A stretch of 64,000 nucleotides of DNA, taken from positions 32,001-96,000 of the IMG/VR virus record IMGVR_UViG_3300021400_000138. One strand, written 5' to 3'. This DNA is from a virus. Lineage: Duplodnaviria > Caudoviricetes. Below, one piece after another: positions 5,723-53,698 of this stretch. A program made the position numbers and the translations under genes. A model generated the notes under the pieces. It was not told the DNA's origin. It made no database searches and worked only from the letters and a program-made list of their open reading frames with translations. The stretch's first letter is position 1. Every line of letters begins with the position of its first letter.

Positions 5723-5735
5723 AGGAGCGTAAAGT

Positions 5736-6992
5736 ATGCTAAAAACAAGAGACGAGCTGGACAAACATTTTGAAAGTGTAATTGTAAAGTACGCAGATGA
5801 TCCAAAGATCATGAGACGGATTGCGGATTATTGCTACGAAAATTTTGATCTTCCAAGAGCAAGAACAATGACAATTCTTGGTCTGAATGTTAGTATTCGT
5901 GAATGCAGCGAAAGCGAAATCTTTTGGATTCTTGTAGCCATGAATAATTATTCCGAGAGATGGAACCTAAAGATCTCTCAGTTCTTTACAGATACAGAAA
6001 TCAATGTCTATATGAAATCCAAAAATAATAACAACCCAATAGAATTTCCACTGAGATTTCCGATGATTCAAATAGCCGATGACCAGTGGATTGGGAAGAT
6101 AACGGCTAAGGAGCTTATTCGCCTCAGAAGGGCGGACATGATCACATATAACAAAAGCGCCCAACGTCGCGCCAAGACGATTGTACGGGGCGATAAGGAG
6201 TTTACAAGGCTAAATGTGATGGTCGGTGTCGTAAATAAAATTGCAGATTTATTAGTCAAACACAGATTTATATCAAACGCTATAACGTTAAATATACCTG
6301 ACGGAATGGCAGATTTCTTTTACGACAGTAAAAATAAAGAGTTGGTTATTAATAGCCTAAGATCATTTGATATCATAGATGGTTTTCACAGGTATGTTGC
6401 TATGTGTAATGTCGCCGATGAAAATATTGATTTTGATTATCCAATGGAACTTAGGCTTGTTGCTTTTTCAGAAGAGAAAGCTAATAACTTTATTTGGCAA
6501 GAAGAACAGAAGACAAGGATGCCAGTAATTGATGCCAAGTCATATAACATGAATGATCTGGCTAATAAGATTGCAAACAGAATTGCGGAATCGAGTATTT
6601 GCGCCTTAAGCGAAATCATTGATAGGAATGGACGAATACCTATTGGTCACCTGGCGTATGCAATTGATGGAATTTATCTTAAAAATATGCCAGAGGAAAA
6701 AAAGAAAACGGCTATTGTGGATGTTACTAAAGATATTATAGAAGATTTTAATATCTTAACTGACCATGATAGTAGCTTGTTGACAATGAATTGGAAAGTG
6801 TCTGATATTTATATTTGCATTAACGTATTCTTCTTAATGAGAAACAAGGACAAAAGAAAACTCTATGATAACTATGTGCTGGTAAGAGATTCAATAAAGG
6901 AAAATCCGATTGAAAAGAAATTTATGCTAAGTAATACCATTAAAAAGCAGATGCAAATAGTTGAGGCAATAATGGAGGATGAAGATGTATAA
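5736..6992 (+). CDS. DndB/ParB-like DGQHR-family protein (SPbeta YopQ/SroE-like)
   Basis: ITYNKSAQR, NAITLN and IIDGFHR motifs; lies between two integrase-fold genes. Confidence 0.75.
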   Translation: MLKTRDELDKHFESVIVKYADDPKIMRRIADYCYENFDLPRARTMTILGLNVSIRECSESEIFWILVAMNNYSERWNLKISQFFTDTEINVYMKSKNNNNPIEFPLRFPMIQIADDQWIGKITAKELIRLRRADMITYNKSAQRRAKTIVRGDKEFTRLNVMVGVVNKIADLLVKHRFISNAITLNIPDGMADFFYDSKNKELVINSLRSFDIIDGFHRYVAMCNVADENIDFDYPMELRLVAFSEEKANNFIWQEEQKTRMPVIDAKSYNMNDLANKIANRIAESSICALSEIIDRNGRIPIGHLAYAIDGIYLKNMPEEKKKTAIVDVTKDIIEDFNILTDHDSSLLTMNWKVSDIYICINVFFLMRNKDKRKLYDNYVLVRDSIKENPIEKKFMLSNTIKKQMQIVEAIMEDEDV

Positions 6993-7917
6993 TGAAAAGC
7001 AAAAGCTAAGGTATTTAAAAGATTGCGAGGGAGTATATGATGAGAGTACCATAAGAAATATTGTCAGCAAATTTAATGTTTGTGAATGGATAGAGATAGA
7101 AAGAGGGAAAGATATTTCTCTGTTTACAAAGTATGAAATTGACGATTATCTTTATACAGTAGGAATGAAGAGTTCTCCGGGATCTTTAGCAAGTATTGTT
7201 TCTTATTATTCTAAATATGTAGAGTGGTGTATTAACAATTCTTTGGTTCCAAGTGGAATTAATCATTTTGATGAAATTGTTGGTGAAAAGAAATTTGATA
7301 AGTATTTAAACAGAAGATTAACAAAGCGAAAATATATTACTCAAGGAGAATTTGATGATGTTTTAAATCGTATTCACAATCCCAGAGATCAATTTGTTTT
7401 ATGCTGCTTATATGAATTTGGAATTTCTCCAAACCAAGTGGAGATTATGAATATTCATTTTAGTGATTTTGATCTTAAAAACAATACAGTAAAATTGATT
7501 TCCGGAAGAGAACCGAAAGTATCACAAAAATTAATCCATTATGCAGAACTTGCAGATCAAGAACTTGAATATACAGTAGAAGTATATGATGGATCCTTTA
7601 GGAAATATAAACTTCTTGATAATGGTTTGGTATATAAAGATGTTGACTGGGGACCAATCAAGCCGAGTCCAAATGCTTCTCAGAGAATCTTCAAACTTCT
7701 ACGCCAAGTAAAGAAATCAACTGGATTGGATGATGCCGTCACAGCCAATAGTCTTTCTGATGCTGGATTTTTTATGTTTGTCGAATCAGAAGCAGAAAAA
7801 ATTGGAATAGATCCAATAGATTTCATAAAGGAAAATGAAGAGCTACTTATTAATCAGTATAACAAGAATACCGTAAGGGCATTAGTAATTTATAAAAAGG
7901 TAAAAGACCTGTTTTAA
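6979..7917 (+). CDS. Degenerate integrase-fold protein, probable master repressor (YopR/MrpR/SroF-like)
   Basis: MYNEKQKLRYL N-terminus; NPRDQFVLCCLYEFG with catalytic Arg replaced; no HxxR. Confidence 0.7.
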   Translation: MKMYNEKQKLRYLKDCEGVYDESTIRNIVSKFNVCEWIEIERGKDISLFTKYEIDDYLYTVGMKSSPGSLASIVSYYSKYVEWCINNSLVPSGINHFDEIVGEKKFDKYLNRRLTKRKYITQGEFDDVLNRIHNPRDQFVLCCLYEFGISPNQVEIMNIHFSDFDLKNNTVKLISGREPKVSQKLIHYAELADQELEYTVEVYDGSFRKYKLLDNGLVYKDVDWGPIKPSPNASQRIFKLLRQVKKSTGLDDAVTANSLSDAGFFMFVESEAEKIGIDPIDFIKENEELLINQYNKNTVRALVIYKKVKDLF

Positions 7918-17975: not shown

Positions 17976-18893
17976 ATGGCGACTGGATTCATTAAGGCTG
18001 TAAGAGAAGATGTGTGGTTGAAAATCCAGATGGGTGGAACATCTGGCGCTGGTAAAACAATGTCTGCTCTTAGAGTTGGAACAGGAATTGCAAGAAGATG
18101 TAATAGTGGAATTGCATTTATTTCTTCGGAGAAATCAAGAACATTATATTATGCGGATAAGTTTGATTATGACGTGCTTGAGTTAGATGATTATTCTCCG
18201 GAAGATTATATAAAAGCTATTGATATGGCGGTTGATGCGGGATACAAGGTAATCATTATTGATTCTACTAGCCATGAATGGCAATGGCTGAATGATGTTC
18301 ATGGAAAGATGCCAGGAAACAGCTTCCAGAACTGGGGAAAACTCAAACCGCGTCATGCAAAATTTCAGCAGAAGATACTTCAATGTCCAGCTCATGTTAT
18401 TACATGTGCAAGGGCAAAAACGGAATGGTCACTTGAAGATAAAGATGGTAAGAAGGTTCCGGTAAAACTTGGTCTTGGAAATGAAGGCGATAAACAAGCA
18501 GATTTTGATTATACTGTTTCATTTTCTATTGCACAAGGATCACATATTGCTTCTGTAGATGCTGGCGGCAAAGATAATACTGGATTATTTAATGAAAAAT
18601 ATGAGGTGTTGACAGAACGTCACGGGGAAATGCTTTATGAATGGGCAAATTCTGGCGAAAAACCCGCTTCGATTCCGAAAGAAATTCCTGAACCGGGAGA
18701 TGCAATCGTACAAGCTGCTGATGAACTTAAGGCGGTTAAAGCCCAGATTATCGAAGCCGCAAAAGCAGCTGGTGGTTCATCAAATGAAACCGTTATGACT
18801 ACTGTTAAACAATATGTAGCAAGTGGAAATCCAAATGCAATTCGAGATATTGATAAAGCGAAGGAACTTCTTGCGAAGCTTCAGTCTATGTAA
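17976..18893 (+). CDS. AAA_24-like ATPase (Sak4-like recombination protein)
   Basis: Walker A GTSGAGKT, Walker B IIIDS; directly upstream of ssb. Confidence 0.75.
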   Translation: MATGFIKAVREDVWLKIQMGGTSGAGKTMSALRVGTGIARRCNSGIAFISSEKSRTLYYADKFDYDVLELDDYSPEDYIKAIDMAVDAGYKVIIIDSTSHEWQWLNDVHGKMPGNSFQNWGKLKPRHAKFQQKILQCPAHVITCARAKTEWSLEDKDGKKVPVKLGLGNEGDKQADFDYTVSFSIAQGSHIASVDAGGKDNTGLFNEKYEVLTERHGEMLYEWANSGEKPASIPKEIPEPGDAIVQAADELKAVKAQIIEAAKAAGGSSNETVMTTVKQYVASGNPNAIRDIDKAKELLAKLQSM

Positions 18894-21263: not shown

Positions 21264-22271
21264 GTGAAAATGATATATTCCCAGGAAGCACTCGAAGAAA
21301 TGGCTGATCAGGTTGATCTTCTGGATTATGCAAGTCAAACAGTTGATTTTGTAAAACATTCTGGGAATACACATTTTGCCGTTTGTCCCTTTCATTCGGA
21401 AAAAACTGCAAGCCTTGCGGTTAATGAAGACGAAAACTTCTTTCATTGCTTCGGTTGCGGACGTTCCGGAAATATATATAAATGGATCCAGTGGACAGAA
21501 GGTCTAACATTTGATCAATCAGTAAAAAAAGTTGCTGATATTACAAATTCAGATATTAGTAAATATGTTGAGTCTGAAACAATGAGTTTCTTTAAAATGT
21601 TAAAAAAATTAAAGGAACCACATAGAAAAGAAAATTTAAAAAGATCATATTTAGATATAGATCTTGACTATAAACAAAAGTATTTAGATGAAATCCCAGA
21701 AGAATGGATAAAAGAAGGAATCTCATCTGAAGAAATAAAAAAATATGAAATACTCATTGATCCATCGTCTAACCGAATTGTTTATCCAGTAAGAGATGCA
21801 AATTATCAAATGATTGGAGTAAAGGGAAGAACAAGATTTCAAAATTATAAAGACCTTGGAATCATGAAGTATATGAATTATAACCGTATAGGCATACTTG
21901 ATTACTTTACTGGCATGATGCAAGCAGCGGATTATATAAAAGAAAGCAGCGAGATTATAATTGTTGAAGGCATAAAGTCGGTAATGAAATTAGATCATTG
22001 GGGATTTCACAACGTTGTTTCGGCAGAAACCAGTACACTTAATGAGTATCAGGTTGAACTTCTTGTTAGAATGCAAGTGAAGAGAGTGGTAATTGCATTT
22101 GATAAAGACGTACGTCTTAAAAAAATCAAAGAGTGTACCGGATTATTAAAACGATTTACCAATGTTTATGCTGTTATTGATAGATGGAATTTATTAAAGA
22201 ACAAAGAATCACCTTGCGATGATGGGGAAGATGTATTCCGTTCTTTATATGAGAGGAAAGTAAAACTTTGA
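21264..22271 (+). CDS. dnaG: DNA primase (CHC2 Zn finger plus Toprim)
   Basis: CPFHSEKTAS...HCFGCG, VEG and AFDKD. Confidence 0.9.
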   Translation: MKMIYSQEALEEMADQVDLLDYASQTVDFVKHSGNTHFAVCPFHSEKTASLAVNEDENFFHCFGCGRSGNIYKWIQWTEGLTFDQSVKKVADITNSDISKYVESETMSFFKMLKKLKEPHRKENLKRSYLDIDLDYKQKYLDEIPEEWIKEGISSEEIKKYEILIDPSSNRIVYPVRDANYQMIGVKGRTRFQNYKDLGIMKYMNYNRIGILDYFTGMMQAADYIKESSEIIIVEGIKSVMKLDHWGFHNVVSAETSTLNEYQVELLVRMQVKRVVIAFDKDVRLKKIKECTGLLKRFTNVYAVIDRWNLLKNKESPCDDGEDVFRSLYERKVKL

Positions 22272-23068
22272 ATGAATGTAATGCAGAAGATTTTATAATT
22301 TCGACTATGAAATGGTCGTTCTCCAGATTAAATAGTTTTGATACGGGATGTCCATATGAATGGTATCAACATTATATAGAATGCGAACCATCAAAACAGG
22401 GATTCTTTGGATCATTCGGTGGGTTTTGTCATAGCTGCCTGGAAAAATATTCCAAGGGTGAACTTGACCTATTTGATTTGTCTTCGTATTACGAGGACAA
22501 TTTTGCAACAGAGGTTCCTTATGATGCACCACCAAACAAATATACAGATATTAAAAGTGATTATTATCAAAAAGGATTAGATTACTTTGATAACATAGAT
22601 TTACCGCTCGATGAATATAAAATCATTGGCGTGGAAAAACGTGTGGATTTTATGATAGATAAATATCCATTCATAGGTTTTATAGATTTGTTATTACAGG
22701 ATCCGGAAGATGGTAAGTTAATTCTATGCGACCATAAATCTGCATCCATTAAAATTTTAAAATCAGGTGCCATTAGTAAATCTGACCAACATCATTTTCT
22801 TGAATTCAAAAGACAGCAGTATTTATATGCAAAGGCTATTATCGAAGAATTTGGCAAGGGTTGTGTAAAAGAACTCTGGTGGAATATGTTCAAGGATCAG
22901 AAGTGGATAAAAATTCCTTTTAATATAGACGAGTATCAGGAAGCGCAACAGTGGGCATTAGATACTATTCATAGAATAGAAAAAGAAACTGAGTGGCTAC
23001 CTAATCCTGAAATGTGGTATTGCAATTATTTGTGTGGACAATCTGGCGGATGTCCATATAAGGTGTAA
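22268..23068 (+). CDS. PD-(D/E)xK nuclease (Cas4/AddB-like)
   Basis: WSFSRL...CP, GFIDL, CDHKS, QQYLY and C-terminal Cys cluster. Confidence 0.85.
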   Translation: MNECNAEDFIISTMKWSFSRLNSFDTGCPYEWYQHYIECEPSKQGFFGSFGGFCHSCLEKYSKGELDLFDLSSYYEDNFATEVPYDAPPNKYTDIKSDYYQKGLDYFDNIDLPLDEYKIIGVEKRVDFMIDKYPFIGFIDLLLQDPEDGKLILCDHKSASIKILKSGAISKSDQHHFLEFKRQQYLYAKAIIEEFGKGCVKELWWNMFKDQKWIKIPFNIDEYQEAQQWALDTIHRIEKETEWLPNPEMWYCNYLCGQSGGCPYKV

Positions 23069-35000: not shown

Positions 35001-35029
35001 TTGACACATTATGAAGTGGGTAGTATAAT
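35001..35029 (+). promoter_or_regulatory. Consensus sigma-A promoter driving the accessory gene array
   Basis: TTGACA - 17 nt - TATAAT with A-rich UP element. Confidence 0.85.
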
Positions 35030-36230: not shown

Positions 36231-38941
36231 AAAAAGTAATTACGATAATTTTGGTAATATTAATTGCATTGGCTATTAGCTTCTTCAGTACTGCGGGACT
36301 TATTAAACTTGCATGCTGGGCTTTTGGTTATACATTTTCGTGGAAACTATCTGTTGGAATATGGGTTGTGTTGTGGCTGTTAGGATCTTTTTTTAAATCT
36401 TCGAAATGAGGCAAGATACATGACAAATCAGGAAGCAACAGAAATTCTTAAACGACTTCAGGAACCAGAAGTATGGGAACCGCAAATAACAGATAAGACG
36501 TTTGATGCACTTGGTATGGGGATTGATAGTCTTCATAAAAATATAAAACTTTTAGATTATGTTAAGAGAAAATGTTATGAAATTTTAGCTGAGAAGCATT
36601 ATTATGAATCCATAAAACATAATTTCATTTACCAGGCTGATAAGATAAAAAATGGAAGTATTATTAGAACAAGTAATATTTATGAAGAGGCTGTAAACTT
36701 AAAAGTAGAACAAGAAAAATTGGATGTTCTGATATACGATATTTCGCAACTGTGTCATATTCTCGGTGGCGAATATCTGAAAATGTGGGAAGAGATTGTT
36801 CAGGGGCAATGAATAGATATGAATCAATCTAATTTAAAATTAATCATGAGTGCGAGGGAATATATGAATCAAAAAGAAGAGAAGAATCCACGTCAAATAT
36901 TTATTGACTGGGCAGAGAATGTAAGACAATATGCAACAAAAGGTAATTATGCGCTGAAACAAGATAATGAATCTAAATCCAAATCCATAGATACTGCATC
37001 AGATTATTTCAATTCGATAATTGGTGCCTGTGATACAATGCTAACCATTTTAAAAAGTGGTATTTAATATGAATAATAAAGAATGTTGTAAAAACTGTAA
37101 GTATCATTTAAAGCTGCTGAAATGGGATTATTCTCATGGTGGATGCGAACATTCTGAATATGATGGATTTGCTTGTATTGCATTGGCTAATGAAGGAGTA
37201 GTAATACATCAAGTACATTCGGATAATGCATTTGCCGAGGAGAATGATTATTGTGAGATGTTTACTCTGAAGGAGAAGGCAATATGAGGATATTAAATAC
37301 GGCAAGACAGCTTTTGTTTATAGAAGAAGATATGCGGAGGAAGGATCCCGAAAAAGAGTTCGACATATATATGTTTGAACAAACCTGGGGATCCACGGCA
37401 TTAGGATTTGGCGAAATGGGTGGACAAGCAATAACTGGTGAGACAACGTTCGTGTTGATTCCGTATGACAGAGAAATAGCTTATGTATTCTTCGGTGCAA
37501 ACTTTGCGTACAAGATTGAAGGATATAATGATCTGTTTAAAGAAGATTTGCGGAAGCATCGCATGGCAAGTGTTCGCGAGAGTGGAAAGTATAGAAGAAA
37601 CAGAGAATAAAATTTTGGTTTTACCAATTTGTATAAGGAATTAATTCATGAGCAAACATAAGCATAAAGGTCGATTAATCGATCATCTCTGGACATTTAT
37701 CAAATACAAACATGACGAAGCTATCTATGCACGTTGTAGTTGTGGATTTGTATATTCCTGTTATAAGCATGTTGATGAACTAGGCTTAAAAATAGTTATT
37801 GCTCCAGAAAAGCCATATCCATATTGTCCATGGTGTGGTGCAAGAAAGAAAAGATATGATGAAGAAGTGAAGAGAGTGGATTATTCTTGGTGGGAGAAAT
37901 GACATGCCAGAAAAATTTAGCATTATAAGAAACATTGATATCGAAGTTTTAGAGCGTAAGCTGGATGCCTGGAATATTACTCATGATTATTTTCCAATTA
38001 TATTGATATCAGTAGATACATTTAAAGATCTTCCTCCTTTCATGAGTGAGGATGTAATTATTAGTACTGAATATAATTACATATATCATGGATTCAAGGT
38101 ATTTATTGATCCAGAAAAGACATATGGAGATGTTGAGTTAAGATGAATATTGAAGCAAGATGGTCAGGATCATATCCAACTTTATGTTTTGGACATTGGA
38201 CATTGCTGATCGATGGAGAAGATGTATCAGAAAAAATTCCAGAAGATGTTCGTAAAAGCCCGATGAATACCTTCGGAATCTATCAGGATTGGCATTTTGA
38301 AAACTGGATGGAAGTTTTCGAAAATTATGCCGATGGATTACTTTGCGATGAGTGGATTGAAGAAAATGATTATTGGCTGAAAGATATAACCGATGATTAT
38401 AGTGTTAAAGAAGAAATCTATGATGCTTTTAATTCAGAGGATTTTCGATATGGAAGCTGCGGTGGATGTATATAAGGGGTTATAAAATATGAAAGAAAAA
38501 ATTTCAGAATTGTTGTATCAACAACTCGGCGGAATTTATTGCGATAGCTGCGAGTATCAAGATAATGAAGATTATTGCGAGGGATGCCATCGTAAGTATA
38601 TGAAATGGGCGATTAGCAAAAATGCTACTGATGGATTGGCGGAAGCAATTATGGAGATAGTTAACGAATGAAATTACATACACGTTGGAAAAGAAAATAC
38701 CCGAACATAATCGGCAAACGATTCTTTGATGGCGGTGAATACGGTCTAGGATATTTTACGGTGCTTAAGGCTTGGAAATGCAAAGAGTATTGTAAATCCG
38801 CATTCGCTCCAGATGGTACACGTTGGTTTGATAAAGAGATGATTCTGATTAAAACAGATACGGGATTAAAGTACAAAGTTCCGTTTTGTCCCTGGGCAAA
38901 AATAACCGATGAAGATGGCAAATGGTGGAGTAAATACTTTA

Positions 38942-39406
38942 ATGAAAAACCTTGGTAAAGAATATATCCATTACGGACATACTTTATTTGATCAGGACAT
39001 ATTCCAGCCAGTAAAAAATCAGGAATGGGGTGCCGCAAAACCGTTAGGTGGCTTTTGGGCATCTCCAGTAGATGCAGAAAGAAGTTGGAAGAATTGGTGT
39101 GAAGATGAAGAGTTTCGTCTGGAAAATTTGAATACCAGTTTCAGATTTCATCTTAAAGATGATGCTAGAGTATTTCACATCTATAGATCAGATCAACTTC
39201 AGCAGCTTCCAGAACTTGATACAATTATTAAAGTAACCTGGTATTGTATAGACTTTGAAAAAGCCGCCGAAAATTGGGATGCTATTGAACTTCATTTATC
39301 TGAGGAGATTTGCGATGATTACTTGGAAAGCTTATACTTTCGCCTTTATGGTTGGGATTGCGATTCTATATTGATTATGAATCCGGAGATTATATATAAT
39401 GTTTAA
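38942..39406 (+). CDS. Conserved phage hypothetical protein (KPLGGFWAS...YGWDCDS)
   Basis: ORF overlapping the previous gene's end. Confidence 0.6.
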   Translation: MKNLGKEYIHYGHTLFDQDIFQPVKNQEWGAAKPLGGFWASPVDAERSWKNWCEDEEFRLENLNTSFRFHLKDDARVFHIYRSDQLQQLPELDTIIKVTWYCIDFEKAAENWDAIELHLSEEICDDYLESLYFRLYGWDCDSILIMNPEIIYNV

Positions 39407-39582
39407 TTTTGATGATCGTGAAATGGAAATTATAAATTATACAATGGAGTTACTTAATGGATTTTTGCTTAGGTTCAGTGAATTGGAAGAAAGAGTGTCG
39501 TCCTTAGAAAAAATGTTGAATATTGAAAAAGTTAAAGGCACAAGTCTTGAAAATCAGTTTATTCAAAATGAAGGAGTTCATC

Positions 39583-39849
39583 ATGACACATGAACTTAAG
39601 GTTTTGCCAGAATATTTTGAGGCTTTGGTTAATGGAAGTAAAACATTCGAGATTAGAAAAAATGATCGAAACTTTCAGGTTGGTGATTGGCTATTATTAA
39701 AAGAATGGAATCCAGAAACTGAAGAATATACTGGTTATTCTGTTCTGCGCTATGTAAGTTATATTCTTTATGATTGGCAAGCTGGACTGAAAGATGGTTA
39801 TTGTATTATGGGATTAAAACATGGTGCGCCAACGGCAACACTTGATTGA
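39583..39849 (+). CDS. ASCH/DUF3850 protein
   Basis: HELKVLPEYF...GSKTFEIRKNDRNFQVGD. Confidence 0.85.
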   Translation: MTHELKVLPEYFEALVNGSKTFEIRKNDRNFQVGDWLLLKEWNPETEEYTGYSVLRYVSYILYDWQAGLKDGYCIMGLKHGAPTATLD

Positions 39850-42459
39850 GGGGATAGTATGGCAGTTGTTGTAAAAGATCTTAAAATGCCAAAATGTTGT
39901 AATGAATGTCAGATGTGTTATGAATATGTCAAAGAACATTGTTGGAAGAATGGCGATTGGTTTTCACGAAGTGGATTTGATCCAGAAAAGAGCAGATTAC
40001 CTGAGTGTCAGTTAATGGCAGCTAAAGTTGTAAATGCTTGACGAACGTCAAGTAATAAGGAGAAAAAATGAATTATATAGTTAATCCATTATGGTTTTAT
40101 TTGATAAGTGTTGCGGAAGGTATTGATATAGCGGCTTTTGTTGTATGTACAATAACTTTGATTGCATTGTGCGTCTTTTCATTAATTCTTTGTTTTTACT
40201 ATGATGAAATAGATGATTCCGATAAAAAGACGATTGAATCTATATTTAAGAAATCTATCATTCTATTAATAACATCATCGATAATTGCCATAATAGTTCC
40301 TGGGCGAGAAGATATGGAAAAAATGTTGATTGCTTCTTATGCTACCGAGGAAAATGTTTCCGCAGCAACTAACTATGGTAAGGATTTGGTTGATTATATC
40401 TTTGATAAGGTTAATGGCGTTAATAAAGAGGAGAAGAAATGAGCTTATTGATCAAAGGCGAATCAATGCCAGATAGTTGTTCTGTTTGTCCTCTTATGCA
40501 TGATAACGGTTGTTGTATAACTGGTTATCAATGGATATCTCGAACTTATATTGATATAAATTTTGATTCAACTAAAAAGAGATTGAAAGATTGCCCATTG
40601 GTTGAAATAAAATCACATGGGGATCTAATTGACAGGGATGTTCTCAAACAGGATTTGAGCGATTTTTACACAGATATCGTGACAGCGAGACGATTAAAGT
40701 AAGCAGAACAGTTGAGTGGTAATAGATAATGAAAGAAGTAAAGGTATATCAATGTGAAACATGCGGAACGAAATATAACGACAGAGGAACAGCTGAGTGG
40801 TGTGAAAGATCACACAACGACAAGCATTTATTAGAGATGACTTACTTATACTTGTTATTAGCTCAACAGCTAGGAATAAAATTTCAGGAGGCACAACATG
40901 AACTTTTATGAGGTATGAGAATGCCAAAATTCGGAATATTAAATGATCCATTTTCAGAAAGGGAATATAATCGACCCATTTGTAGTAAATGTATGTTTTA
41001 TGATTTTAATGAGATGTCTGATGAAGCATATTGTGCCGCCAAAGATTATGAACCGATTCAGTTATATCGAAAACATCGTCCTAACTGGTGTCCAAGATTG
41101 GAAAATATATATGGATATTATTTATGATGAAGATTATCTCGTTTGCGAACCATGTTTAAGCTGCGAAAAATCATATACAGAAGATATATGGTGGGAAACA
41201 TTCTGCGATGAAAAAGAGTGCATTCATAAGAAAGAATACGAAAATCAGATGAAAAAGCTGCCAGAAGAAAGGATATGACATTTTGAAAGATCGAATAAAT
41301 TTAATTCTTGACGCAAAAGAAGTAGATATTGTTATTGATGCGCTTGATTGTTATGTATATATGGCCTCTAGTCTTTCAGAAGTTAATAAATACATAGAAA
41401 TTAATACAGTTAGAAATCATATCTATGAGAAATGCCAGAAGGAATTTGATGAGGAATTATCTGTATGAATGATGGTTATATTATCTGTGAATACAAAGGT
41501 GATTTAGTTCGTGTTCAATTTGATAATGAAATGAGCGGTTGGTATCCAAAATATGATTCTGCCAAAGTTATTAAAAAGAATTGTCAACCATTGAATGATT
41601 ATGGGCTGCTTTGCGAAAGAGATTGGGAATTTTCTTATAAACTTGTTAAAGATTCATGGGATGGATTTCAGCCAGTTGATGATATTGATTTGGATAAAGT
41701 GGATGCTATAGATATTGTAATTGATATTCTCCTACAATTTAGACATGGAATAATGGATGGTTACGGATGCAAAAAAAACAAATTATGATTGGTGAATTAA
41801 AAATTCCTAGATCTCGTTGTGATGAAACGGCGAAAGATTTATTAATAAAAATAAGTGAAAGTTATTATATGGGTAGAACTAATACGGATGATGAGTATAT
41901 TTACTTTGAAATATATGATAAAGATGAATTTAGTAAATATAGTAGCCCTGTAAATGTAGATTGTTTAAAGGATGATTTTTATAAATGAAGTTTATCTTAA
42001 ATGGTTGTGACATTAGCTTTATTGCTGAAGCGCCAGATGATATAACCTTAAAGCAATTAATAAAACAATGTGATAAGATCAAACCAGATTGGTGTGCTTG
42101 CGGAATATGTTCTCTAGAATATGAAAATTATCCAGAAGATACTGAAGTCGAAATCATTTTTGGATATGATTCAGTTAGAAAAGCCAATGAAGATGTTAGT
42201 TGTAGGATTACAGAAAGCAGTAAATGGATTGAAGAATAAATATGAGGTATAAGATGGTTAAAGTATTTACGACAAATAGCAACGGGAAAATAGAATTTAC
42301 TAAAGAAGAACTTGAAAATCTGCTTAATGAAGTTTGGCAAGATGGATATCAATCAAATAAATCTTATTGGTGGACATCACCTACGATTACTACACCGCAT
42401 CTTCCAACGAATATTATATATAGTAATGAAAATTAAAAGAATAAAATGAGGGATTAGAA

Positions 42460-42966
42460 ATGATAATTATCGGATACCAAGGAATCGGGAAGTCTACTTT
42501 GGCAAGATCAGAGAATGGATATATAGATCTGGAAAGTGGATGCTTTTGGAATGATGGTAAACGCCCAGATGATTGGTATATCTATTATTGCCAGATAGCA
42601 GAGCATTTATCTAGGCAAGGTTATGTTGTTTTTGTATCTTCTCATCAGACCGTCAGAGATTTTCTTAGAGAATCGGCAGAGATTGTGATTACTATTTATC
42701 CTTCAATTCTTCTTGCCGATAAGTGGAAGAACAAATTAAAGAAAAGATATGAATCTACAAGAACCGAAAAGGATTATAAAGCCTGGATGAACGCGGAAAA
42801 TTATTATCATGTAAATATCTCGCATTTAATGATGTGTGGAATTCTTCATTTAGAGATTGAGAATATTAATTATGATTTGGATAAAATGATACGTGCCGTG
42901 ATTAAGAAAAATCCAAAAGTGTTTCCGGACGATTCATACAGCAAATTAATGTGGGTAGAAGAATAA
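42460..42966 (+). CDS. P-loop kinase-like protein
   Basis: GYQGIGKST. Confidence 0.7.
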   Translation: MIIIGYQGIGKSTLARSENGYIDLESGCFWNDGKRPDDWYIYYCQIAEHLSRQGYVVFVSSHQTVRDFLRESAEIVITIYPSILLADKWKNKLKKRYESTRTEKDYKAWMNAENYYHVNISHLMMCGILHLEIENINYDLDKMIRAVIKKNPKVFPDDSYSKLMWVEE

Positions 42967-42977
42967 AGGATTAATTT

Positions 42978-43376
42978 ATGAGAACAATTTTGTTATATAT
43001 AATGATTTTTCTTCATATAGTAGATGACTATTATCTTCAAGGAATACTTGCCAGTATGAAGCAGAAATCCTGGTGGGAGAAGAATGCGCCAGACCAACTA
43101 TATAAAAACGATTACAAGGTTGCGTTGATTGAACATGCATTTAGTTGGACCTTTATGGTCATGTTGCCAATAACTGTGCTGATGGTGGCTAACAATAATA
43201 TATTGATAATTCCATGGAGTATAGCATTTGTTGTTAACTGGATTATCCATGGATGGGTGGATCATTTAAAAGCTAATGTTAAAAATTGTAGTCTTGTAGT
43301 TGATCAAATAATTCATGCATGCCAGATTTTTGCAACATGGTGTGTAATGACAGAGTTAATGGGGGTTGTCGGATGA
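42978..43376 (+). CDS. DUF3307 membrane protein
   Basis: HIVDDYYLQ, HGWVD and DQIIH. Confidence 0.75.
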   Translation: MRTILLYIMIFLHIVDDYYLQGILASMKQKSWWEKNAPDQLYKNDYKVALIEHAFSWTFMVMLPITVLMVANNNILIIPWSIAFVVNWIIHGWVDHLKANVKNCSLVVDQIIHACQIFATWCVMTELMGVVG

Positions 43377-44902
43377 GTGTCTTGATTAAAGGTATAAAGA
43401 TGCCAGAGAGTTGTCTGGATTGCCCCATATACGACAGTTATTATTATCATTGCAATCTGTATGGTTACGGCATTCCAGCAAGACATGACTATGATCCATC
43501 AAAAATACCAGAATGGTGCGAACTCGAAGAATTCCCAGAACATCATGGTAGATTGATTGATGCGGATGTTCTAGCTGCGGAATCACTTGCGGATGGTGCT
43601 TATGGATATGTGGACACAAAAGAGATTTACGATGCACCTACGATTGTTGAAGCGGAATGAAGGGTGGCAACGATGATTAAATTAGATCTTGAAATGCCTA
43701 AGGATACCTTTGAATGCCCGTTTTTAGAGGAAGATACGGATAGTGTTCTTTGGTGCTATTTTGCACCGCAAGTTGAGAAAAGATGTATTGGATTATTTAA
43801 GGGTGAATGTCCAATAATAAGAGAAGAAAATTCAGAATGAAAGGGTTATTTGATGGAAGATAGTATGCCTTATTTTTTGGCTTGTTTTTATATGACATAT
43901 ACGGAAGAACATGATAGATTATTATCCAATATAAGATCTGAACATGATCCCACAGAAGCCATTGTAGATTATGGGTGTAGAAAGTATTCTGATAGATATG
44001 CAATAAACTGTAGAAAGTATTTATACAACTTATATCCGCAATTTAAAAAAGCATGGAATGAAGAGATACGTAAGCATAACAATTATTCTGCGCAACATTG
44101 GATAGACGAATATGAAAGATTAACCAATGATGGCTGGAATATTAAAGGATATCGCAATCACGATTTATTTGCTGTTTTTGATAACGAGGGGCTTATTTGA
44201 TGAGATTCAGTCTTGTATATAAAAAGAATAATAAATTCAAAGAGTTATATTCAATTATGAAAAACAATATTGAAGAAGCTTCAAAAACATTTAATAGTAA
44301 TTTACCCAAAGATAACAAGGACTATTATATAAGAGTTATCAGACCAAAAGCTGAATATTATGATTTAAGCGGGAAACCTATTAATATAGAAGTTGGATGA
44401 GGGTTATTTGATGTGCAAGTTTTGCGATAATTTATCGGAAAGAAAAGAACGAGAAAATTTGTATGGATATTTTGACCCGGAACTTGGTAGATGGATACAG
44501 GAATATACTGTTGCATTAGTGATCCATAGTTGGTATCAAAAACGTGGCAAGAAGTCTGCATTTAGGACGGTTGACTTCAGAAACAAAGGTTTAGGATATA
44601 AATTGAATTATTGTCCAGAGTGCGGGAAAGAATTATAAAGTGGGGCTATTTGATGAACTATAAAGAATTTGCGAAAACATTATTCGATTCTGAAGACCAA
44701 ATGTTTCCAAATGGTACAGACGCACAGACTTGTTTAAATATTTTGGCGGAGCATTTCTTGGGAAAAGATTTGGTGTTAAATTATCCAGGTCATATAACTC
44801 AATGGAATTCTGAAGTTACTCACGAAATTTTGAGAAAATATCCATCTGGAAAAATTAGAAGGATACATAAATAAAACGATTTTTTTACTGAGGGGTATAT
44901 AA

Positions 44903-45168
44903 ATGCCAAAATATTTTAGTATTTTACGCAATATTGATACAAAAATCTTAGATGAACAAATTGCTGATTGGTTTGATGAACATAAATACGATCCGATAAT
45001 ATTGATGTCACCAGATACATTGAAAGAAATACCAACACTTGAGGACTTGGGAATTCATATTACGAAAAGTACGTATAATAAAATTGCACAGGCAGAGTTG
45101 GCACATACGAGGGAACAAAAGTATTTAGCGATCCAAGCATGAAATATGGTGAAGTTGAATTGAGATAA
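44903..45168 (+). pseudogene. Frameshifted paralogue of 37904..38146
   Basis: A -1 shift near 45082 restores ...KVFSDPSMKYGEVELR*. Confidence 0.65.
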
Positions 45169-47533
45169 AATAAGTTTTTATGGTGAGGCATATGAAAGTA
45201 TATATAGTGACTTCTGGTATATATTCGGATTATATGATACGAAAGATTTTTCTAGATAAAGACAAAGCTGAGGAATATAAAGAATGGATTCCAAACAGTA
45301 ATGATATTGAAGAATATGATACTTCAGATGAAAATATTATAGATAAGTTATATAAAATCAGAATTGATCTAAGATGGTATCCGAATAAAGAAGAAAAACT
45401 TTTTGCAAGTGCATGTAAAGATTGTGAATCGGATTATAATTACAATCATTACTCCAATTACAGTGATATATGGGAAGAATTGGTTGTTGTAAGAACAGTA
45501 AACGGGGAAAATTTTAACGAAGAGTTTTGGAAAGATAAATTAACAAAGTATATATATGATTTAAAAGCCTATGTTAAATATCTTAAAACAGAAGGCTGCA
45601 ATGAGAAACAAATAAGAGATGCAATAGAATTAAAATGAGTTTTTGATTAGGATTATATTATGAGTAAATCTTTAGATTTTTGTAAAAGTAGAGCATCTAA
45701 CCCGGAAATTTCAAGCTATGCCGACCGCAATTGGGATAATGCGGTTGAACAGAATATAACTAATTGTTTAGATTTTATTATAAAAGGTGTAAGAAATTAT
45801 AAACTTACATGGTATTTAGATGATGGTACAGTAGCGTTCTATAATGTCAATTTAGAAATAAATCCGAATGCTGACTTTGATTATTTTACATCTGATTCTT
45901 TTATATGTGATGGCACGTTAATATTTCTTGCTGAGTCAATTGATAAGATGCTACGAAAAATTCTTAGTCTTGGAACATATAATAAAAATTTGGGTGAGCC
46001 TCCTAATGGTTGCACTGTAAATTATGTTATTGGCAATGCTGTTATTCTTTCGGAATATGATGGCGATTGGATACCAAATGGCAAACAATGGATGCGAGAA
46101 AGAAATACCGTACTTATACCGCTAAAGGTTTGGTATGAATAAAAAGATTATTTGAATGAGGTATCTGTATGGAATTGTTATTAAATGGTTATCTAACTAA
46201 AGACTATGATGGTCATCCAGCTTTAACAGAAAAACCAACATCATCTAAATACTGGGCAAAATCAATTCCCAGAGAAATACAGTATAAATTTGGAAAAACA
46301 TTTTATGACGATAAATGCCTTGGAAAAGACATTAGTTATATTCCAGATTGCTGTATGAGTATCTGGTATACAGATGGAGAATGTACTTTTGATGAAGCCC
46401 AGGAAGCTTTATGTAATTATTTGGACGGTTATATGACGGTTGAGGTAGCATATCAGGGTTATTCTGAATGGACAATTACTGGATTTGATTTAGAAGAATT
46501 CAGAATCGGCGGACATAACTTGGAGAAAGAACTTGAAGATCATATGGGCGAGTATTGTTGGATAAGAATAACGAGGTAAGAATTTATGAGAGTAACAATA
46601 TCAAATGAATTTACACCTTCTCCGCAAGATATGATTGAAGAATTCTGGGAGAGCACCGCTGAAAGACAGGCGGAAATATTGTATTCATTAGCATTGATTT
46701 GTAAATATGATTTATATTCATTCTGTATGCAAATGTCTTATGTGTCAAATGAATTGGATGAATTGGATAAAGATGCCAGAGAAGATATTCTGTTTTGTTT
46801 GAAAGAAATGGTCAATCAAATTGAAAGATAATGCAGAGTGATATGGATAAAGAATATATTATTAATGTAATAACAGCAAAGATCAATAAATTTATATTAG
46901 AGATAAGCGAGAATTCTAAACATCATGCTGATTTTATTCAAGACAATACCAATATGGTTGTATTTGGTGCTGAAACAGCTTTAGATATTATGAAGGAAAC
47001 AATACTGGATTTATTTGATGATGTTTAGAATTGGAATAGATGAGGTTAAAATATATGACATACGAAGAAAAGCGTGAACTTCGATTACAGATTAGTCAAC
47101 TACTTGCAGACGCTGGAATCAATCAAGAATATCTTAAAGAACTTGCACGAGAAGAACTTGAAAAGAAAAGTGAACGTGCAATTAAACAGGTGGTTGAAAA
47201 TAGAGTGAAAGAAATCTTGCCAACTATGTTAAAACGAGAAATCCAATCTAGTTTATATTCTGCTGTAAAAGGTGAAATCCAAAATAGGATCATCCAAGTT
47301 GTATTAAAGGATTGCGAAAATGGATAAGGAATTATTAATATGTCCAGTATGTGGAAAAGAGAATAAATACGATTATTATTCAGAAATTGAATGGGGCGTA
47401 GTCGAGCAGCATTATTATTGTCCACGATGTACATATTTTGTTGATCAAGTATATAGCCCAATTATCAAAGGCATTAGTACAGATTGTCCAGAGGAATATA
47501 TTGAAAAAGCCAAAGAGTTAAAATTGGATTTTT

Positions 47534-47739
47534 ATAAGCCAGAGGAGATACCATAAATATCATGATTGACTTCGGATTTGGGACAGCATTTAGAAATAAT
47601 TTAACTGATAAAGAAGAAGCTGCTCTGGATCATCTATTAAATATGATGACTGCTATAAAACAACAAATTCTTTTAAGAAGAGCGATGAAAGAAGAGTCAA
47701 ATATTTATAGGAAAAAAGATAAGCCAGAGGAAATACCAT
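47534..47739 (+). repeat. 21-nt direct repeat flanking a small ORF
   Basis: ataagccagaggaRataccat at 47534-47554 and 47719-47739. Confidence 0.8.
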
Positions 47740-48654
47740 GAAATATGATTTTCGAAGAATATTTAATCCAACAGAAGAAGAACAGGAAGAAGATCGACGG
47801 AAATATAAAGAATTGCATTATGAACTGGCGGAGAAAAAAGGTTGTTCAACTTGCAAACATTGTATTCACGTTAGAACTTATCCAGATTATGTAACAGGCG
47901 AAGAATGTGAATGCTCTGCTGGTTTGGAATGCGATACCGTTTTATTTTCGGTAACCAATTGTCCAGAATGGATAGATGATTTTGAGGAGTTATCATGATA
48001 CTTAAAGACATTAGTAGTGAATGTCAACGCTGCGTTAACTTGAAAGCATGGAATATCCGTATGAATGGCGAACATGATTATTGTTGTAAACGCAGACCTA
48101 CAAAATTTATTGATAAGTATTTGCATCAAGAACCTTGTGAGGAGTTTATAAATATAGATTGTATTGATTGTATTAACCATGGCGGTGATTGGGAATGCGA
48201 TTATGTCCACTGCCATAAAGGAGAAAGTCATGAGTGAATATATCGACAAATCCAATGCGATAGATATTCTGGATGATCTTTGGAATAGGGATAGGAATAA
48301 TAGTAGAGCTTTCTATTTACGATTACGAAAAGCCATATATGATTTACCAACTGAAGAAATAATCCATTGCAAAGATTGTAAATACTATTGCAACGTTTTA
48401 TATCAGGGTACTCAGTTTGAATATGGCGAATGTGACGCAGTCGATGAGTTTTATATTGAGAATAAAAAACCACATGATTTTTGTAGTATGGCGAAGTTGA
48501 AAGAATGAAGATGGGATATTATGCTAAAGAACCTTTTGATGAATTAATAAAGACTTTTAAGGACTCCGGTCAATATGATTTTCTTGAAAAACTTACCGAG
48601 GATGAACTTTGGAAAATATTTTTATTAATTACATTTTTAAATCTCTATGGGTCT

Positions 48655-48718
48655 TATTCCCCGCAACTTGCTGCAGACAAACTAAGCGAAGCTCGGGCTG
48701 ATACCCCGCAGCAAGCTG
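48655..48718. repeat. GC-rich inverted-repeat insertion (possible IS200/IS605-end or MITE remnant)
   Basis: ccccgcaacttgctgc...ccccgcagcaagctg inside an AT-rich ORF. Confidence 0.45.
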
Positions 48719-49357
48719 ATGACATGAATTTACAGGAAAAAGATTTACATCAAGTTAATAACAAAGATGTTCTATTAATTAATATCAAAACATCAATTAA
48801 TGACTTCATTACAGAATTACAAGAAAATGCAAAATATCATGCTGATTTTATAAAAGACAATGTAAACCTGGTTGTGTTTGGAGCTGAAGAAGCTTTGAGA
48901 ATTGTAGAAGAAACAATAGAAAAATATGAAGATATGTAACGCTACTGGCAACGGTATTTGTATTAATTGCAATCGAATTCCGCCAAAAATCAATGGATAT
49001 TCGTATGGAAATATCTGTAGAATTGATGTCGAAGATATATTAGCTGCTTTGGAATGTGGTAATCTTGTTTGTTATAACTCAGATAACGGTAGATTTTATG
49101 AAAAGATAATGTATGAACATCCGAGAGATTTTATAGATGATGAATGGGAGTGTATTGGATGAATGATGATGAATTCAGAATCTGTGATCGAGTGTTTTTT
49201 TCTGGAAAATATGGTCTTGGTTATTTTGGAAACATAGAAAAGATTGATCACGATGGACAAAAATTGTTAGTACGAACTGATGATATGAGACTATATGAAA
49301 TATCTATGGATAAAGTTACACTCTTAAAACATAGATAACCAATAAAAGAAGTGTTTT

Positions 49358-49528
49358 ATCTGCGGTAGACAAGCATTAAAAGTCGATAAGAAAATGAAGC
49401 TCCGGGAAAGGGACACAGGCGTAGCTATGGCTCCGTCGATTGGAGAGACACCTTTGAGACAATAACCTCAGAATCTTCGTTGCAACCCGTAAGGAGATGC
49501 GTGTGATTGAAACTGCACACCCGCAGAT
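49358..49528 (+). ncRNA. Unassigned structured RNA, about 170 nt
   Basis: Closing helix ATCTGCGG/CCGCAGAT enclosing several hairpins; GC-rich intergenic gap. Confidence 0.55.
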
Positions 49529-52500
49529 TTGGAGATTAGTAAATGAATAAAAATTGGAATGCATGTAATAGGAGAGATTAGTAATGGCTGAATATATTAA
49601 CAGTGGTGTTAAAGCGGTTGGTATTGGTGACAATGTGGGAATTGATATTCCAAAGCCAATTGCATCAATAAATTTTGATGCACTTCATGCTGGAACGTAT
49701 GTAGTGGATGTTAAACAAGATGGATCATATTTGGCTACTTTTGTTGGAACGATGTATGAAAGTGAATTAAGGAGCAAGATTATGACAGGATTAGAAGAAC
49801 TTAAGGATGTATATGAAATAATTAAAAATGGGTATGGTTATCTTTGCAAAAGTATATCTTTACCATACGAGGATAACGAATATACAAAATTTGTATTTGA
49901 ATATCAAGGATTTCCAATAAAGCATTCATTTTCATATTTGCTATATGAGAGTCCATACGGAGAAAATGATGACGTTGAATTCTTTGATAGCGAGAATAAG
50001 GTAATATTTACTGTGGCACAATTGTTCGCCATTGCGTATCTTGTTAGAACTATTCAGAAAAACAGAGACGATAAAAATACGATTAATGGGTTTATTGAAT
50101 ATCTTAAGAAGGATATCAGGTGATTTATGAAAATTAAAAGCGGCAAAGAGAAAGAATATGAGATTTGTGTGGAAAACAATAGTAAGGACGGATATTCTAA
50201 AGCAGTCATAGACTATTTGGAACGATGGGCAAATTTAATGGAAAAAAGAATTGCTGATGGTGATAAAATCTGTGACATTGCAAAACAAACATCTCACGAA
50301 GCCGATACAGAAGGAATTACTGGTTTTATGTACGGTTGTGCAGTAAATATATTATCGCAATTATGGGAATATGGGGAAGATCTTCGTAAATGGCATAATA
50401 AAGAATATGGGTATGAAGGAGAGAGGGTTGTTAATCCGGCAGTGTTAACAGTTGGATGATGAATTTTATACGAAATTCAACTGTGAAATTTACTTGAAAG
50501 GGGAAACATATGTGGGATCCAGAAAAAGATGCTTGTGATTATTGCTTTGAATGTGAATATTTTTTAGATGATTATTGGAACTGTCAGGGTGGCATAGAAC
50601 CTTGTTGGGAATTTGTTCCAAAGAAAGATTCTAAATATAAAAAAGTTGAAATAGAAATAACTAATGAAACAAGTCTTTGATAAACGATTATGAAGAAAAT
50701 TTTGATAACTAAGAATGGGAATATCCCAGTTGGAGTCTATAACGTTGAAGCAGTTGATGAACATTGGAGTTGGGGATATCACTGGTTTGATTTTCAGCTA
50801 AGTGATGGGAGTAAATCAGTGTATTATCCAATACCAATGTACCATTATTATATTGTTGCTGATAGAAATTAGATTCAATGAGAAGAACAATATGGATATT
50901 ATAGAAGAGTTGTATAGTATTATTATTAATGGAATTATTCATAGATTTCCATTAGAGACGTTTACTAATAAACGCGGAACATTTGAATTGATAGAATTAA
51001 TGGTAGAAGAAATATGCGACAAACATATAGACAATTTTTATAAGTCATATTTTGATAAGTTTGTCGATGTTAAGGACTTTGGAAATTAGATTTGATTGGA
51101 GAAGTAATTATGAATAACAAATTACCGCAACCGATAGATCCTACCGTATGGTTTAAACCGAAAACACAAGATGATATTCTGATTGAAGGCATCACAAGTG
51201 GAATTAAAGCTGCCGGGGTTCGTGGAGAAGATGTAACAGTGCTGTTAATCGAAGCATTAAAGAGCATGGGTAGAAAAGATTTAGTTCCACCATGTTGTCA
51301 GTAGGAGGGAATGAAATGACAAGACAAGAAGCAATTAGAAGAATCAAGGATCATATAGATATCCACCGCATGTATGAACCAAAAGGAACTAAAATTTCAG
51401 AAGCTTTAGAAATGGCAGTAAAATCTCTTGAGAAGCCAGTTTTATTCGTATACAAAAAGCCAGGAGTAATGGTAGGTCACAATTTTACAGATGATGTAGC
51501 AATAACATATGCGACAACCAAAGAGGAGGCTATAAAAAAGTTTAAAGAATTTTATAGTGATGTAAATAATGAAAACGTATCTGAGCCATATTTTAATTAT
51601 GCTAGAGTTGCAATACTTACTGATTACTAATGATGACTGAATTTTGATGGGAGAAAATATGAACTATAACGAGAACGGTATTTGTAAATTTACAATAGAA
51701 CGAGAAGATAGTCATGGTTCACAGCAAAAACACCCGCTGCAATTGGTGGCGAGAATAGATGTTGATGACCTAGTAAAGCTATTCGATGAAGCCTCGACAA
51801 ATTTTGATGGTGAGAACCCCATTTGTAAAGTAAAAGATCCAATTAAATTTACGGAGTTTGTTATCAGAAGGTTGTGGGATGATGCACCATATGAAGCCGA
51901 TGACGTTGTTTGGGCGCAGCCGTTGACTTATATCTTTGAACAATTGCTGGAAGATTATAAGCCAGAGTTTCTTGAGTATTTTGATGAAGTATAAAACAGT
52001 GGTTAATATGGACAATATAAAATACGTTACAAAAGAAGAAGTTGATGAAGAAAAATATAGTTATGCAGTATGCGAATGCACAGTTTTTGGTCCAGACTAT
52101 GGTATACAAGTACCGAGGAAAAAGTATAATGATTTTGTTGAATTTAAATGTCCAAGATGTGGCAGAAAACTCGGACTATTTGTAAGAGGTACCGATTTGA
52201 ATTGTGATTATTTTAATGTATGTTAAAATTGAGGTTTTATCGGGAAAATGAAAATTAAAGATATTACTGTGAAAAAGGTAGAAAAAGTAGAATGGCATAC
52301 TGAAACCCCAATAAATACAGGAGTTTTGGACGCATATTTGGATGCTGATATGGATGTTAAGCGAGAAATCGTTATAGTTCCCCAAATTGCACCCAATTAA
52401 TGGTCTGGATTGCATGGATAAACTTCGTGATTGGTGTAAAATTGAAAGGAGTCTTTGAGGAGGAAAAATATGTATAAAGAGATGCCACCAGATGCTATGC

Positions 52501-53698
52501 AACCACATGACACTTGGGTTATTGCATTTTGTCCAGATACAGATTCGTTCTTTGTCACCAATCAAAGAGCATTCTACTGGGAATCCGAAGAAGAATTTGA
52601 ATCAGAAGAAGCTGGAATATATTTTTTTGAGCATCAGATTCAATACTTCATTGATGTAGAAGAAAAATTAATGAGCGACATGTTTATTAATGCTTGGAGT
52701 ACTGATCGTGTTTTTCTGGAGAACACAAATAGACAATATTTTAAAAACTAAGTTTTATGGGAGAGGTTACATATTAATGAACACACTATATAATATAACT
52801 TCAACTAATATTGGAATTTTTTATAAAGATCAAAAGTGGAAGGACGATCTATTTAAAGAATTGGTACGTGAAGCGCATGAATGCAAAACTCTGTATAGCT
52901 ATAGTGTAACCGAAAATAAAATTCGGTTTTGTGATACATATATTAATATCAATATTATTTTCGTGGGAGCAAACGAACATTCACGAGGACATAGATTTGA
53001 TAGGATCTATTATCAGAATGACATTGATCAAAACACTTTCTCAATGGTGATACGTCCATTGTTTATGCCGAAAATATTTCCGTTATAATTAGATGAAAAA
53101 TTCATAGATAAAATAAGTATTTCATCCAAAAAGGAGTAAAAATGGATAAATTTGAAAAAATAGCTCAAATTAGGTGTTTTGACCAAAATGCAACAAAAGA
53201 CGTTGTGAAAACTCTTGAAAAATCTGGGTTTTATATATGCTTTGAAGATAATTATGGTCCAGATGGGAATGACTTTATTTTAATGAAAAAAGTAACCCAA
53301 TAAAAATTTACTTTTATTGAGAAACGGGAGAATTCTATGACCTACGAAGAAAAATATATGACTTTTGAAAAAGGTGAAAAAAATTAAATGGCAACTAAGA
53401 AAAACTTTTTTAGTGAAATAACTCCGGCACATCCGGTATTTCCGAAGGATGAAAATGAACGCCGGGATTGGGAATTGTGGAGCGCGGTATCAACTGCAAT
53501 CCATATGTGCGGTTATAGCGGCGAAGACGTAGCAGCGATGTCTTTTGAAGTAATGAAGGAAATTGGAAGACAAGATTTGCTTCCACCGTGTGATAGATGA
53601 GGTATCTAATTTATGATGTTATCTATTAATGAAATTGAAAGATCAAAATGGATTGTTGATAATGAAGGAAGAGATTATATAGAGCAAAGGTTTTAAAG

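Follow-up and report, generated by a model that had tools for sequence, protein, structure and literature searches.

The window analysed here (64,000 nucleotides) comprises bases 32001-96000 of a 185,390-bp phage genome from IMG/VR, which has direct terminal repeats and a G+C content of about 33%. Between 37 and 53.5 kb, the window carries an array of small genes, all on the plus strand, and many of these early genes are separated by a 16-base palindromic motif of the form TRAAA-N6-TTT[TGC]A (strict motif; the consensus in SPbeta-like phages is TRAAA-N6-TTTYA). The motif is undescribed as far as the literature could be searched, and no publication naming it was found in a search of incomplete coverage. 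A perfect sigma-70-type promoter (35001-35029, plus strand), already named in a preliminary description of this region and confirmed with 12/12 matches, heads the array; no other promoter is evident, and 34.6-54.5 kb shows no surplus of promoter- or terminator-like sites. The preliminary description had also called the array cassette-like, which agrees with its promoterless small genes on a single strand and with relatives that differ by gain, loss or replacement of one or a few genes. Pfam assignments within the window are Tad4, Tad8, and ProQ-like, and the motif-punctuated arrays hold counter-defence genes.

The phage is a distant SPbeta-like temperate phage, because the gene order at 4751-7917 is that of yopP-yopQ-yopR and because Clostridium phage c-st, its nearest named phage by ligase identity (39%), has homologues of YopQ, YopR, YorF, YorI, and YorJ adjoining the ligase gene. 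Four IMG/VR relatives with ligases 62-65% identical (G001-G004) and two more distant ones (G006 and G007, ligase identity about 42%) were used for comparison, and their loci were obtained via alignment of ligase homologues; a locus search with a single ligase protein returned nothing. Every contig containing gene 45660-46142 matched the window at 100% identity, which left no usable variation.

All 12 strict sites listed in the preliminary description are present, each on the plus strand, and a 13th strict match (47519) lies within coding sequence. The suggestion that the sites often supply the stop codon of the upstream gene is valid for six of the 12, in which the left arm is the stop, reading TAA or TGA and never TAG, but not for the remaining half. 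These six comprise the junction palindrome at 37608-37623 (gene 37284-37610, next start 37648), for which a counterpart in relatives was not found; the junction site at 43838-43853 (gene 43673-43840), which has a Shine-Dalgarno sequence (SD) in its spacer and a right arm overlapping the start at 43853, and which recurs as an identical 16-mer in G001, G003, and G004, with a homology block beginning at 43836; the junction palindrome at 44872-44887, between a Tad8-like gene (44653-44874) and gene 44903-45142, where one block ends at 44874 and another starts at 44870, and the same site type is found in G001-G004; the junction site at 46140-46155 (gene 45660-46142, next start 46169), whose spacer recurs at the corresponding rank in G002 and G004; the junction palindrome at 52224-52239 (gene 51936-52226, next start 52248), with a block ending at 52249; and the junction palindrome at 53301-53316 (gene 53142-53303), which has 8-bp arms. 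Between this last site and gene 53388-53600, there is a 16-codon mini open reading frame (ORF) with its own SD (53337-53387).

The stop codon is located inside the spacer in the junction site at 45631-45646 (gene 45192-45638, next start 45660), whose spacer is also found in G001 and G004 behind unrelated or related upstream genes, and in the junction palindrome at 52742-52757 (gene 52470-52751, next start 52777), which recurs as the same 16-mer in G001, G002, and G004, with both flanks unrelated in G001 and G002. It is located inside the right arm in the junction site at 50665-50680 (gene 50510-50680, next start 50690), with the same spacer in G002 and also between unrelated genes in distant relatives. 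Three sites stand apart from any stop codon: the palindrome at 49343-49358, 5 nt past the stop of gene 49159-49338, where a G001 block begins at 49346; the site at 52443-52458, which lies within a 70-nt spacer directly before an SD and the start at 52470, and whose counterpart in relatives was not found; and the junction site at 53109-53124, 21 nt past the stop of gene 52777-53088 (next start 53142), which is identical in G004. At most window sites, the right arm ends 0-3 nt ahead of the SD of the next gene. Behind the palindrome at 49343, about 225 nt (49358-49583) are free of ORFs, and related sequence (starting tctgcggtgg) follows a different site type in G001-G004; this stretch may be a non-coding RNA filling a gene slot, and an Rfam search of 35-56 kb gave no match.

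Among three near-copies of the motif proposed earlier, two are true degenerate members, both on the plus strand: 45166-45181, with a shifted right arm, lies 5' of a DUF7336 gene (45192-45638), and blocks of G003 and G004 begin at 45165-45168; 51080-51095, with the left arm TGGAA, lies 5' of gene 51110-51304, and its counterpart in G001 is a strict site with an upstream flank about 95% identical and an unrelated downstream flank. The third, at 47739, is merely an ATGA gene overlap.

Enrichment and spread of the motif

Throughout the window, the strict motif gave 24 strand-hits, compared with 8.4 +/- 3.6 in shuffled sequences. On the plus strand from 37 to 53.5 kb, the six-base spacer accounted for 13 matches, while each other spacing from 0 to 12 accounted for two at most. 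When only the spaced gene junctions of the window were considered, with their stop and start codons fixed, there were ten matches at N6, 0-1 at the other spacings from N3 to N9, and 0.07 on average in shuffles; the spaced junctions of the four relatives yielded 32 matches at N6 against 0-4 at other spacings (shuffle mean 0.48). These spacing scans and junction-only counts are the reason why AT richness or stop-codon bias does not explain the motif. A mere by-product of AT-rich junctions combined with TAA and TGA stops would account for the half of the left arms that are stop codons, but is ruled out by the same scans and shuffles, as well as by G006, where the site is apart from the stop codon; we regard it as extremely improbable.

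A second cluster of six further sites is located within 1.5 kb just upstream of the window (genome 28763-30314), and the motif is at chance level in the replication and late regions of this phage. An expectation-maximisation de novo motif search of upstream regions returned only a generic weak signal.

The motif is common to SPbeta-like phages, including the model phage SPbeta itself. Counts in G001-G004 were 2-12-fold above a control with the reversed pattern. Strand-hits numbered 34/29 in G006 (control 3/1), 45/50 in G007 (8/13), 45/42 in c-st (16/15), 40/37 in SPbeta (5/3), and 30/30 in phi3T (2/2), and the perfect form TAAAA-N6-TTTTA is present in 34 copies in SPbeta against 0-4 at other spacings. 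Counts were at control level in SPO1 and Clostridium phage Amboise, and no enrichment was found within the 10 kb that follow the ligase gene in two ligase relatives from ENA, a range of which the matching part in this phage's array likewise holds only one site.

The sites of SPbeta and G006 occupy intergenic junctions. As a rule, they lie 5' of an SD, on whichever strand the gene has, and some adjoin terminators with no start codon after them. The median gap from site to SD is 2 nt for the phage described here, rising to 5 nt for G006 and 12 nt for SPbeta, and such placement is several-fold commoner than at random positions. In the lineage of this phage, the right arm often reads TTTGA on the coding strand, and this variant is strand-specific.

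Ordered sites and changing genes

Many 16-mers recur with identical spacers in the four close relatives, and their order is strictly kept: shared spacer types were colinear in 68 of 68 cases over all pairwise comparisons (null mean 41, maximum 51), whereas single-copy gene families were colinear in 160 of 188. Phages that share a site encode proteins before or after it that resemble each other in neither sequence nor length, and the distance between the same two sites ranges from 178 to 743 nt. The arrays are mosaics, in which single genes or groups of a few form blocks with 70-95% identity, some of which occupy other slots; genes switch slots without their sites, and sites stay intact between unrelated flanks. 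Whole linkers of 30-50 nt can be kept, and tandem copies of them flank inserted genes.

Some signs of older conservation or of inversion were considered and set aside. Two to three spacer types are shared with the relatives of 42% ligase identity against about 0.3 expected by chance, and one of these matches is coding, which makes weak evidence. An apparently inverted site between SPbeta and phi3T is embedded in an imperfect palindrome of greater length, and no blocks were found on the minus strand. Exact shared words of 12-14 nt were swamped by chance matches, so that only longer islands are informative.

Two other short repeats were noticed at the junctions. A 12-nt direct repeat, TTAATTATTAAA, brackets or adjoins sigma-A-type promoters at many junctions of G001, G002, and G004 (L095-L100, e.g., L095:4074-4141) and looks like an operator; this phage has no exact copy. 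A second linker module, aaaaataaaatta, is situated between palindrome and SD at several junctions of Bacillus phages (L128:15248-16072; L129 and L130 after the yoqX homologue; SPbeta 113664-113710 and 132747-132800), is also found inside the 3' end of yoqX, and flanks the inserted gene of Goe13.

The motif often marks where SPbeta-like phages swapped accessory genes. According to the preliminary description, breakpoints among relatives should coincide with the motif; they are indeed concentrated at the sites, some with base-exact precision, but they are not exclusive to them. Over five phages, 8.9% of homology-block ends fall within 12 nt of a site centre, in 1.3% of the sequence, and breakpoints are borne by 36 of 52 junctions with the motif (69%), 69 of 150 other spaced junctions (46%), and 65 of 180 tight junctions (36%). 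Between SPbeta and phi3T, seven of 60 block ends are found no more than 15 nt from the centre of a site, compared with 0.9% expected (Poisson estimate about 2e-6). A 3.2-kb block of 99.97% identity extends from the first base of site 83688 to base 14 of site 86886 (SPbeta coordinates), and identity begins at the edges of sites 92394, 92753, 113664, and 131162. At the two sites that enclose yoqH-yoqI in SPbeta, phi3T has a joint at which the first site's left arm runs into the second site's spacer, while SPbetaL4 and SPbetaL7 have the same site and linker ahead of unrelated genes annotated as Gad1 and Gad2.

Short repeats other than the motif are found around inserted genes too. A 21-nt duplication that includes an SD (47534-47757) flanks the small gene 47562-47741 and looks like the footprint of a short-homology insertion, and the Goe13 insert lies between copies of a 13-nt repeat; both cases suggest events driven by short homology. 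Two laboratory-evolved hybrids of phi3T and SPbeta show ordinary homologous crossovers, four of the five being located in identical stretches of 1.4-13 kb, too wide to inform, and the fifth, mapped to 40 nt, having no site.

Nature of the site and routes of exchange

The element is best read as a double-stranded DNA site and not as an RNA hairpin. The two variable arm positions in G006 are combined as A-T in 5, A-C in 10, G-T in 9, and G-C in 5 cases, with the non-pairing A-C combination being the commonest, and only two of the 12 window sites, 45631 and 53301, fold better than shuffles (z -7.7 for the latter). Since the half-sites vary independently, an RNA-processing signal, mentioned in the preliminary description as an alternative, is unlikely. 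When site types are pooled, arm positions 2 and 15 seem to covary, but this association is absent within G001 or G006 and looks like an effect of lineage composition. A logo built from 64 distinct sites at junctions carries information up to one base outside each arm, followed by the SD; this information spans only 5-6 bp per arm, two arm positions vary freely, and the spacers are less AT-rich than their surroundings. Logo, promoter scan, and folding revealed no conserved -35/-10 elements, GC stem, promoter or terminator consensus around the sites.

A phage-encoded protein presumably binds the site as a dimer or as a pair, and inverted half-sites of 5-6 bp with centres 11 bp apart would fit helix-turn-helix (HTH) dimers and recombinase core sites alike. 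A gene for an HU-type DNA-binding protein (PF00216, 50.8 bits) is located outside the window (genome 2921-3199, minus strand), and such a protein is a possible binder of palindromes with A-tracts and T-tracts.

If the site acted in expression only, as an operator, roadblock, processing or translation-context element of early accessory genes, mosaic boundaries would gather there because joints are tolerated in intergenic DNA while the element must be kept. This fits the placement of sites 5' of the SD, their absence from replication and late genes, the strand-specific TTTGA variant, and a geometry that is common to operators of 434-type HTH proteins. The SPbeta family moreover encodes several Xre-type regulators and the ParB/Srx-like YopQ (PMC8612738). 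However, the sites have no accompanying promoter or terminator consensus, about half of the SPbeta sites have no start site after them, identical spacers between unrelated flanks are left unexplained, and identity edges located exactly at the site edge in many independent comparisons would be hard to produce by selection alone. We consider a role in expression only as unlikely. A YonO promoter was rejected as a candidate, because YonO uses a single late promoter.

The tyrosine recombinase of the XerC/D type encoded at 4751-5722 (plus strand) was previously named as a possible driver of gene shuffling at these sites. The gene is apparently intact, with the R, HxxR, H, and Y motifs present, and is the positional equivalent of SPbeta YopP, which carries a XerC-superfamily domain (PMC8612738), but no link between it and the sites was found. 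It lies 30 kb upstream of the array described here and 6 kb downstream of the other array, and its homologues in G001-G004 lie 4-6 kb downstream of array 1. It is followed on the same strand by a YopQ homologue (5736-6992; tblastn against SPbeta yopQ, 27.6% over 243 aa, E 1e-13) and by an MrpR/YopR-like protein of the recombinase-fold master-repressor family (6979-7917), of which Pfam PF22822 matches the N-terminal core-binding domain only. This match makes it a candidate recombinase-fold master repressor in a gut Firmicutes phage; YopR (MrpR) of SPbeta is a repressor of that kind (PMC10516654). One strict match (7901-7916) overlaps the stop of this MrpR-like gene inside a terminator-like hairpin, probably by chance. 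Elsewhere in the window, 2471-3463 encodes a protein with a GmrSD N-terminal domain.

Site-specific cassette exchange would have the YopP-like recombinase (4751-5722) cut on both sides of the 6-bp spacer, with only matching spacers recombining, so that co-infecting phages would swap the DNA between two matching sites with their order unscrambled, as a natural analogue of recombinase-mediated cassette exchange. The inverted arms around exactly 6 bp do have the core geometry of tyrosine-recombinase sites, as was pointed out earlier, and the individually conserved, strictly colinear spacer types contrast with the less orderly gene families. Sites that survive intact between unrelated flanks, the phi3T joint located exactly at the boundary of left arm and spacer and uniting two SPbeta sites, and spacers less AT-rich than their surroundings all fit as well. 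Furthermore, an orphan tyrosine recombinase is kept in the yopP position, while SPbeta integration uses the serine recombinase SprA instead (PMC8612738). The geometry nevertheless fails in its arms, in which only 5-6 bp carry information and two positions are free. Known tyrosine recombinases require arms of about 9-13 bp. Most breakpoints, besides, lie outside strict sites; other short repeats flank insertions; genes change slots without sites; the one narrowly mapped hybrid crossover has no site, and the other four occurred in long identical stretches. In c-st, no gene for a PF00589 recombinase lies beside the YopQ and YopR homologues, and the single match is about 65 kb away. We judge site-specific exchange of this kind unlikely.

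We tentatively favour a third reading, for which the chances seem fair though short of even: that the motif is a protein-binding DNA site inside conserved linkers, and that these linkers are preferred joints for gene exchange. The site would be one module of a stereotyped intercistronic linker, consisting of stop, palindrome, 0-25 nt, SD, and start, and such linkers would set small accessory genes apart, singly or a few at a time. They may serve as preferred joints when co-infecting or resident relatives trade genes, mainly by short-homology recombination, because they are the sole sequence common to otherwise unrelated neighbouring genes. A Sak4-like protein of the AAA_24 family (17976-18893, plus strand), a candidate annealing recombinase, and a PD-(D/E)XK nuclease (22268-23068, plus strand), a candidate recombination exonuclease, could provide the machinery together with the host RecA.

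Several points weigh against this favoured reading. The binding protein is putative, and an island of 12-25 nt offers very little length for homologous recombination. A plain operator model would not lead one to expect that distinct spacers keep their order, which would need frequent recent exchange. The strand bias of the right arm and its closeness to the SD in this lineage hint at a role in expression. Finally, the motif is neither necessary nor sufficient for exchange, because only 69% of motif junctions are broken and 134 of 173 breakpoint junctions have no strict motif.

An element marking such exchange would help to explain the quick renewal of accessory genes in large temperate Firmicutes phages, and with 34 copies in SPbeta and 30 in phi3T the question is directly testable by Bacillus subtilis genetics. 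The motif hints at a possible function of YopP too, an orphan recombinase that is conserved; a site-specific role for YopP-like proteins is the most interesting of the remaining readings, even if we think it improbable. Should cassette exchange prove true, which we doubt, the ordered sites would act as addresses through which co-infecting phages could trade anti-defence and other accessory genes one slot at a time, with the gene order kept.

Comparison with known systems

The preliminary description had proposed an integron-like system of gene capture and shuffling. The likeness is found in same-strand genes without promoters of their own that share one upstream promoter, in an imperfect inverted repeat at gene boundaries, and in a tyrosine recombinase in the genome, but it does not extend to the behaviour of attC sites. 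An attC site is 57-141 bp long, is folded from a single strand, and travels with its cassette, whereas the sites described here are 16 bp long, are unfolded, and stay fixed in order while the genes change; in addition, the recombinase is not adjacent to the array.

In Acinetobacter plasmids, the pdif (Xer) modules are gene modules bounded by inverted arms around a 6-bp spacer (PMC6449649, PMC13141974). The arrays described here share with them this way of bounding modules and the presence of a Xer-family recombinase, yet pdif arms have 11 bp of defined sequence, as against the 5-6 bp to which conservation is confined in the present motif.

Operators of 434-type HTH repressors consist of inverted half-sites of 4-5 bases around six weakly constrained bases, and overlap a few promoters. 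The short inverted half-sites one helical turn apart, which vary independently, are similar in the present motif. It differs in having 30-45 sites per genome, which are intercistronic inside operons and have no promoter.

Among the SPbeta-like phages themselves, a repeated intergenic element is already known as SPBRE, the target of MrpR (SroF), with about ten sites in promoter regions; the box of phi3T is 26 bp long, non-palindromic, and read by a monomer (PMC10516654; bioRxiv 10.1101/2025.11.27.690993). Its recombinase-fold binder has a homologue at 6979-7917 in the window. However, comparison with the sequence of the phi3T box showed that it lacks the motif, which speaks against an MrpR operator as far as this box goes, and there are 34 sites of the motif against about 10 of the element.

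In T4-type phages, modular shuffling by recombination was proposed to be mediated by PeSL elements, each of which combines a sigma-70 promoter with a stem-loop terminator (PMC2839356, PMC4122927). Like them, the motif is a short conserved intergenic element among small non-essential genes, at which indels and replacements between relatives often end. Unlike them, it has neither promoter nor terminator, being a 16-bp palindrome whose core varies, and it is located inside operons just 5' of the SD, in a different group of phages.

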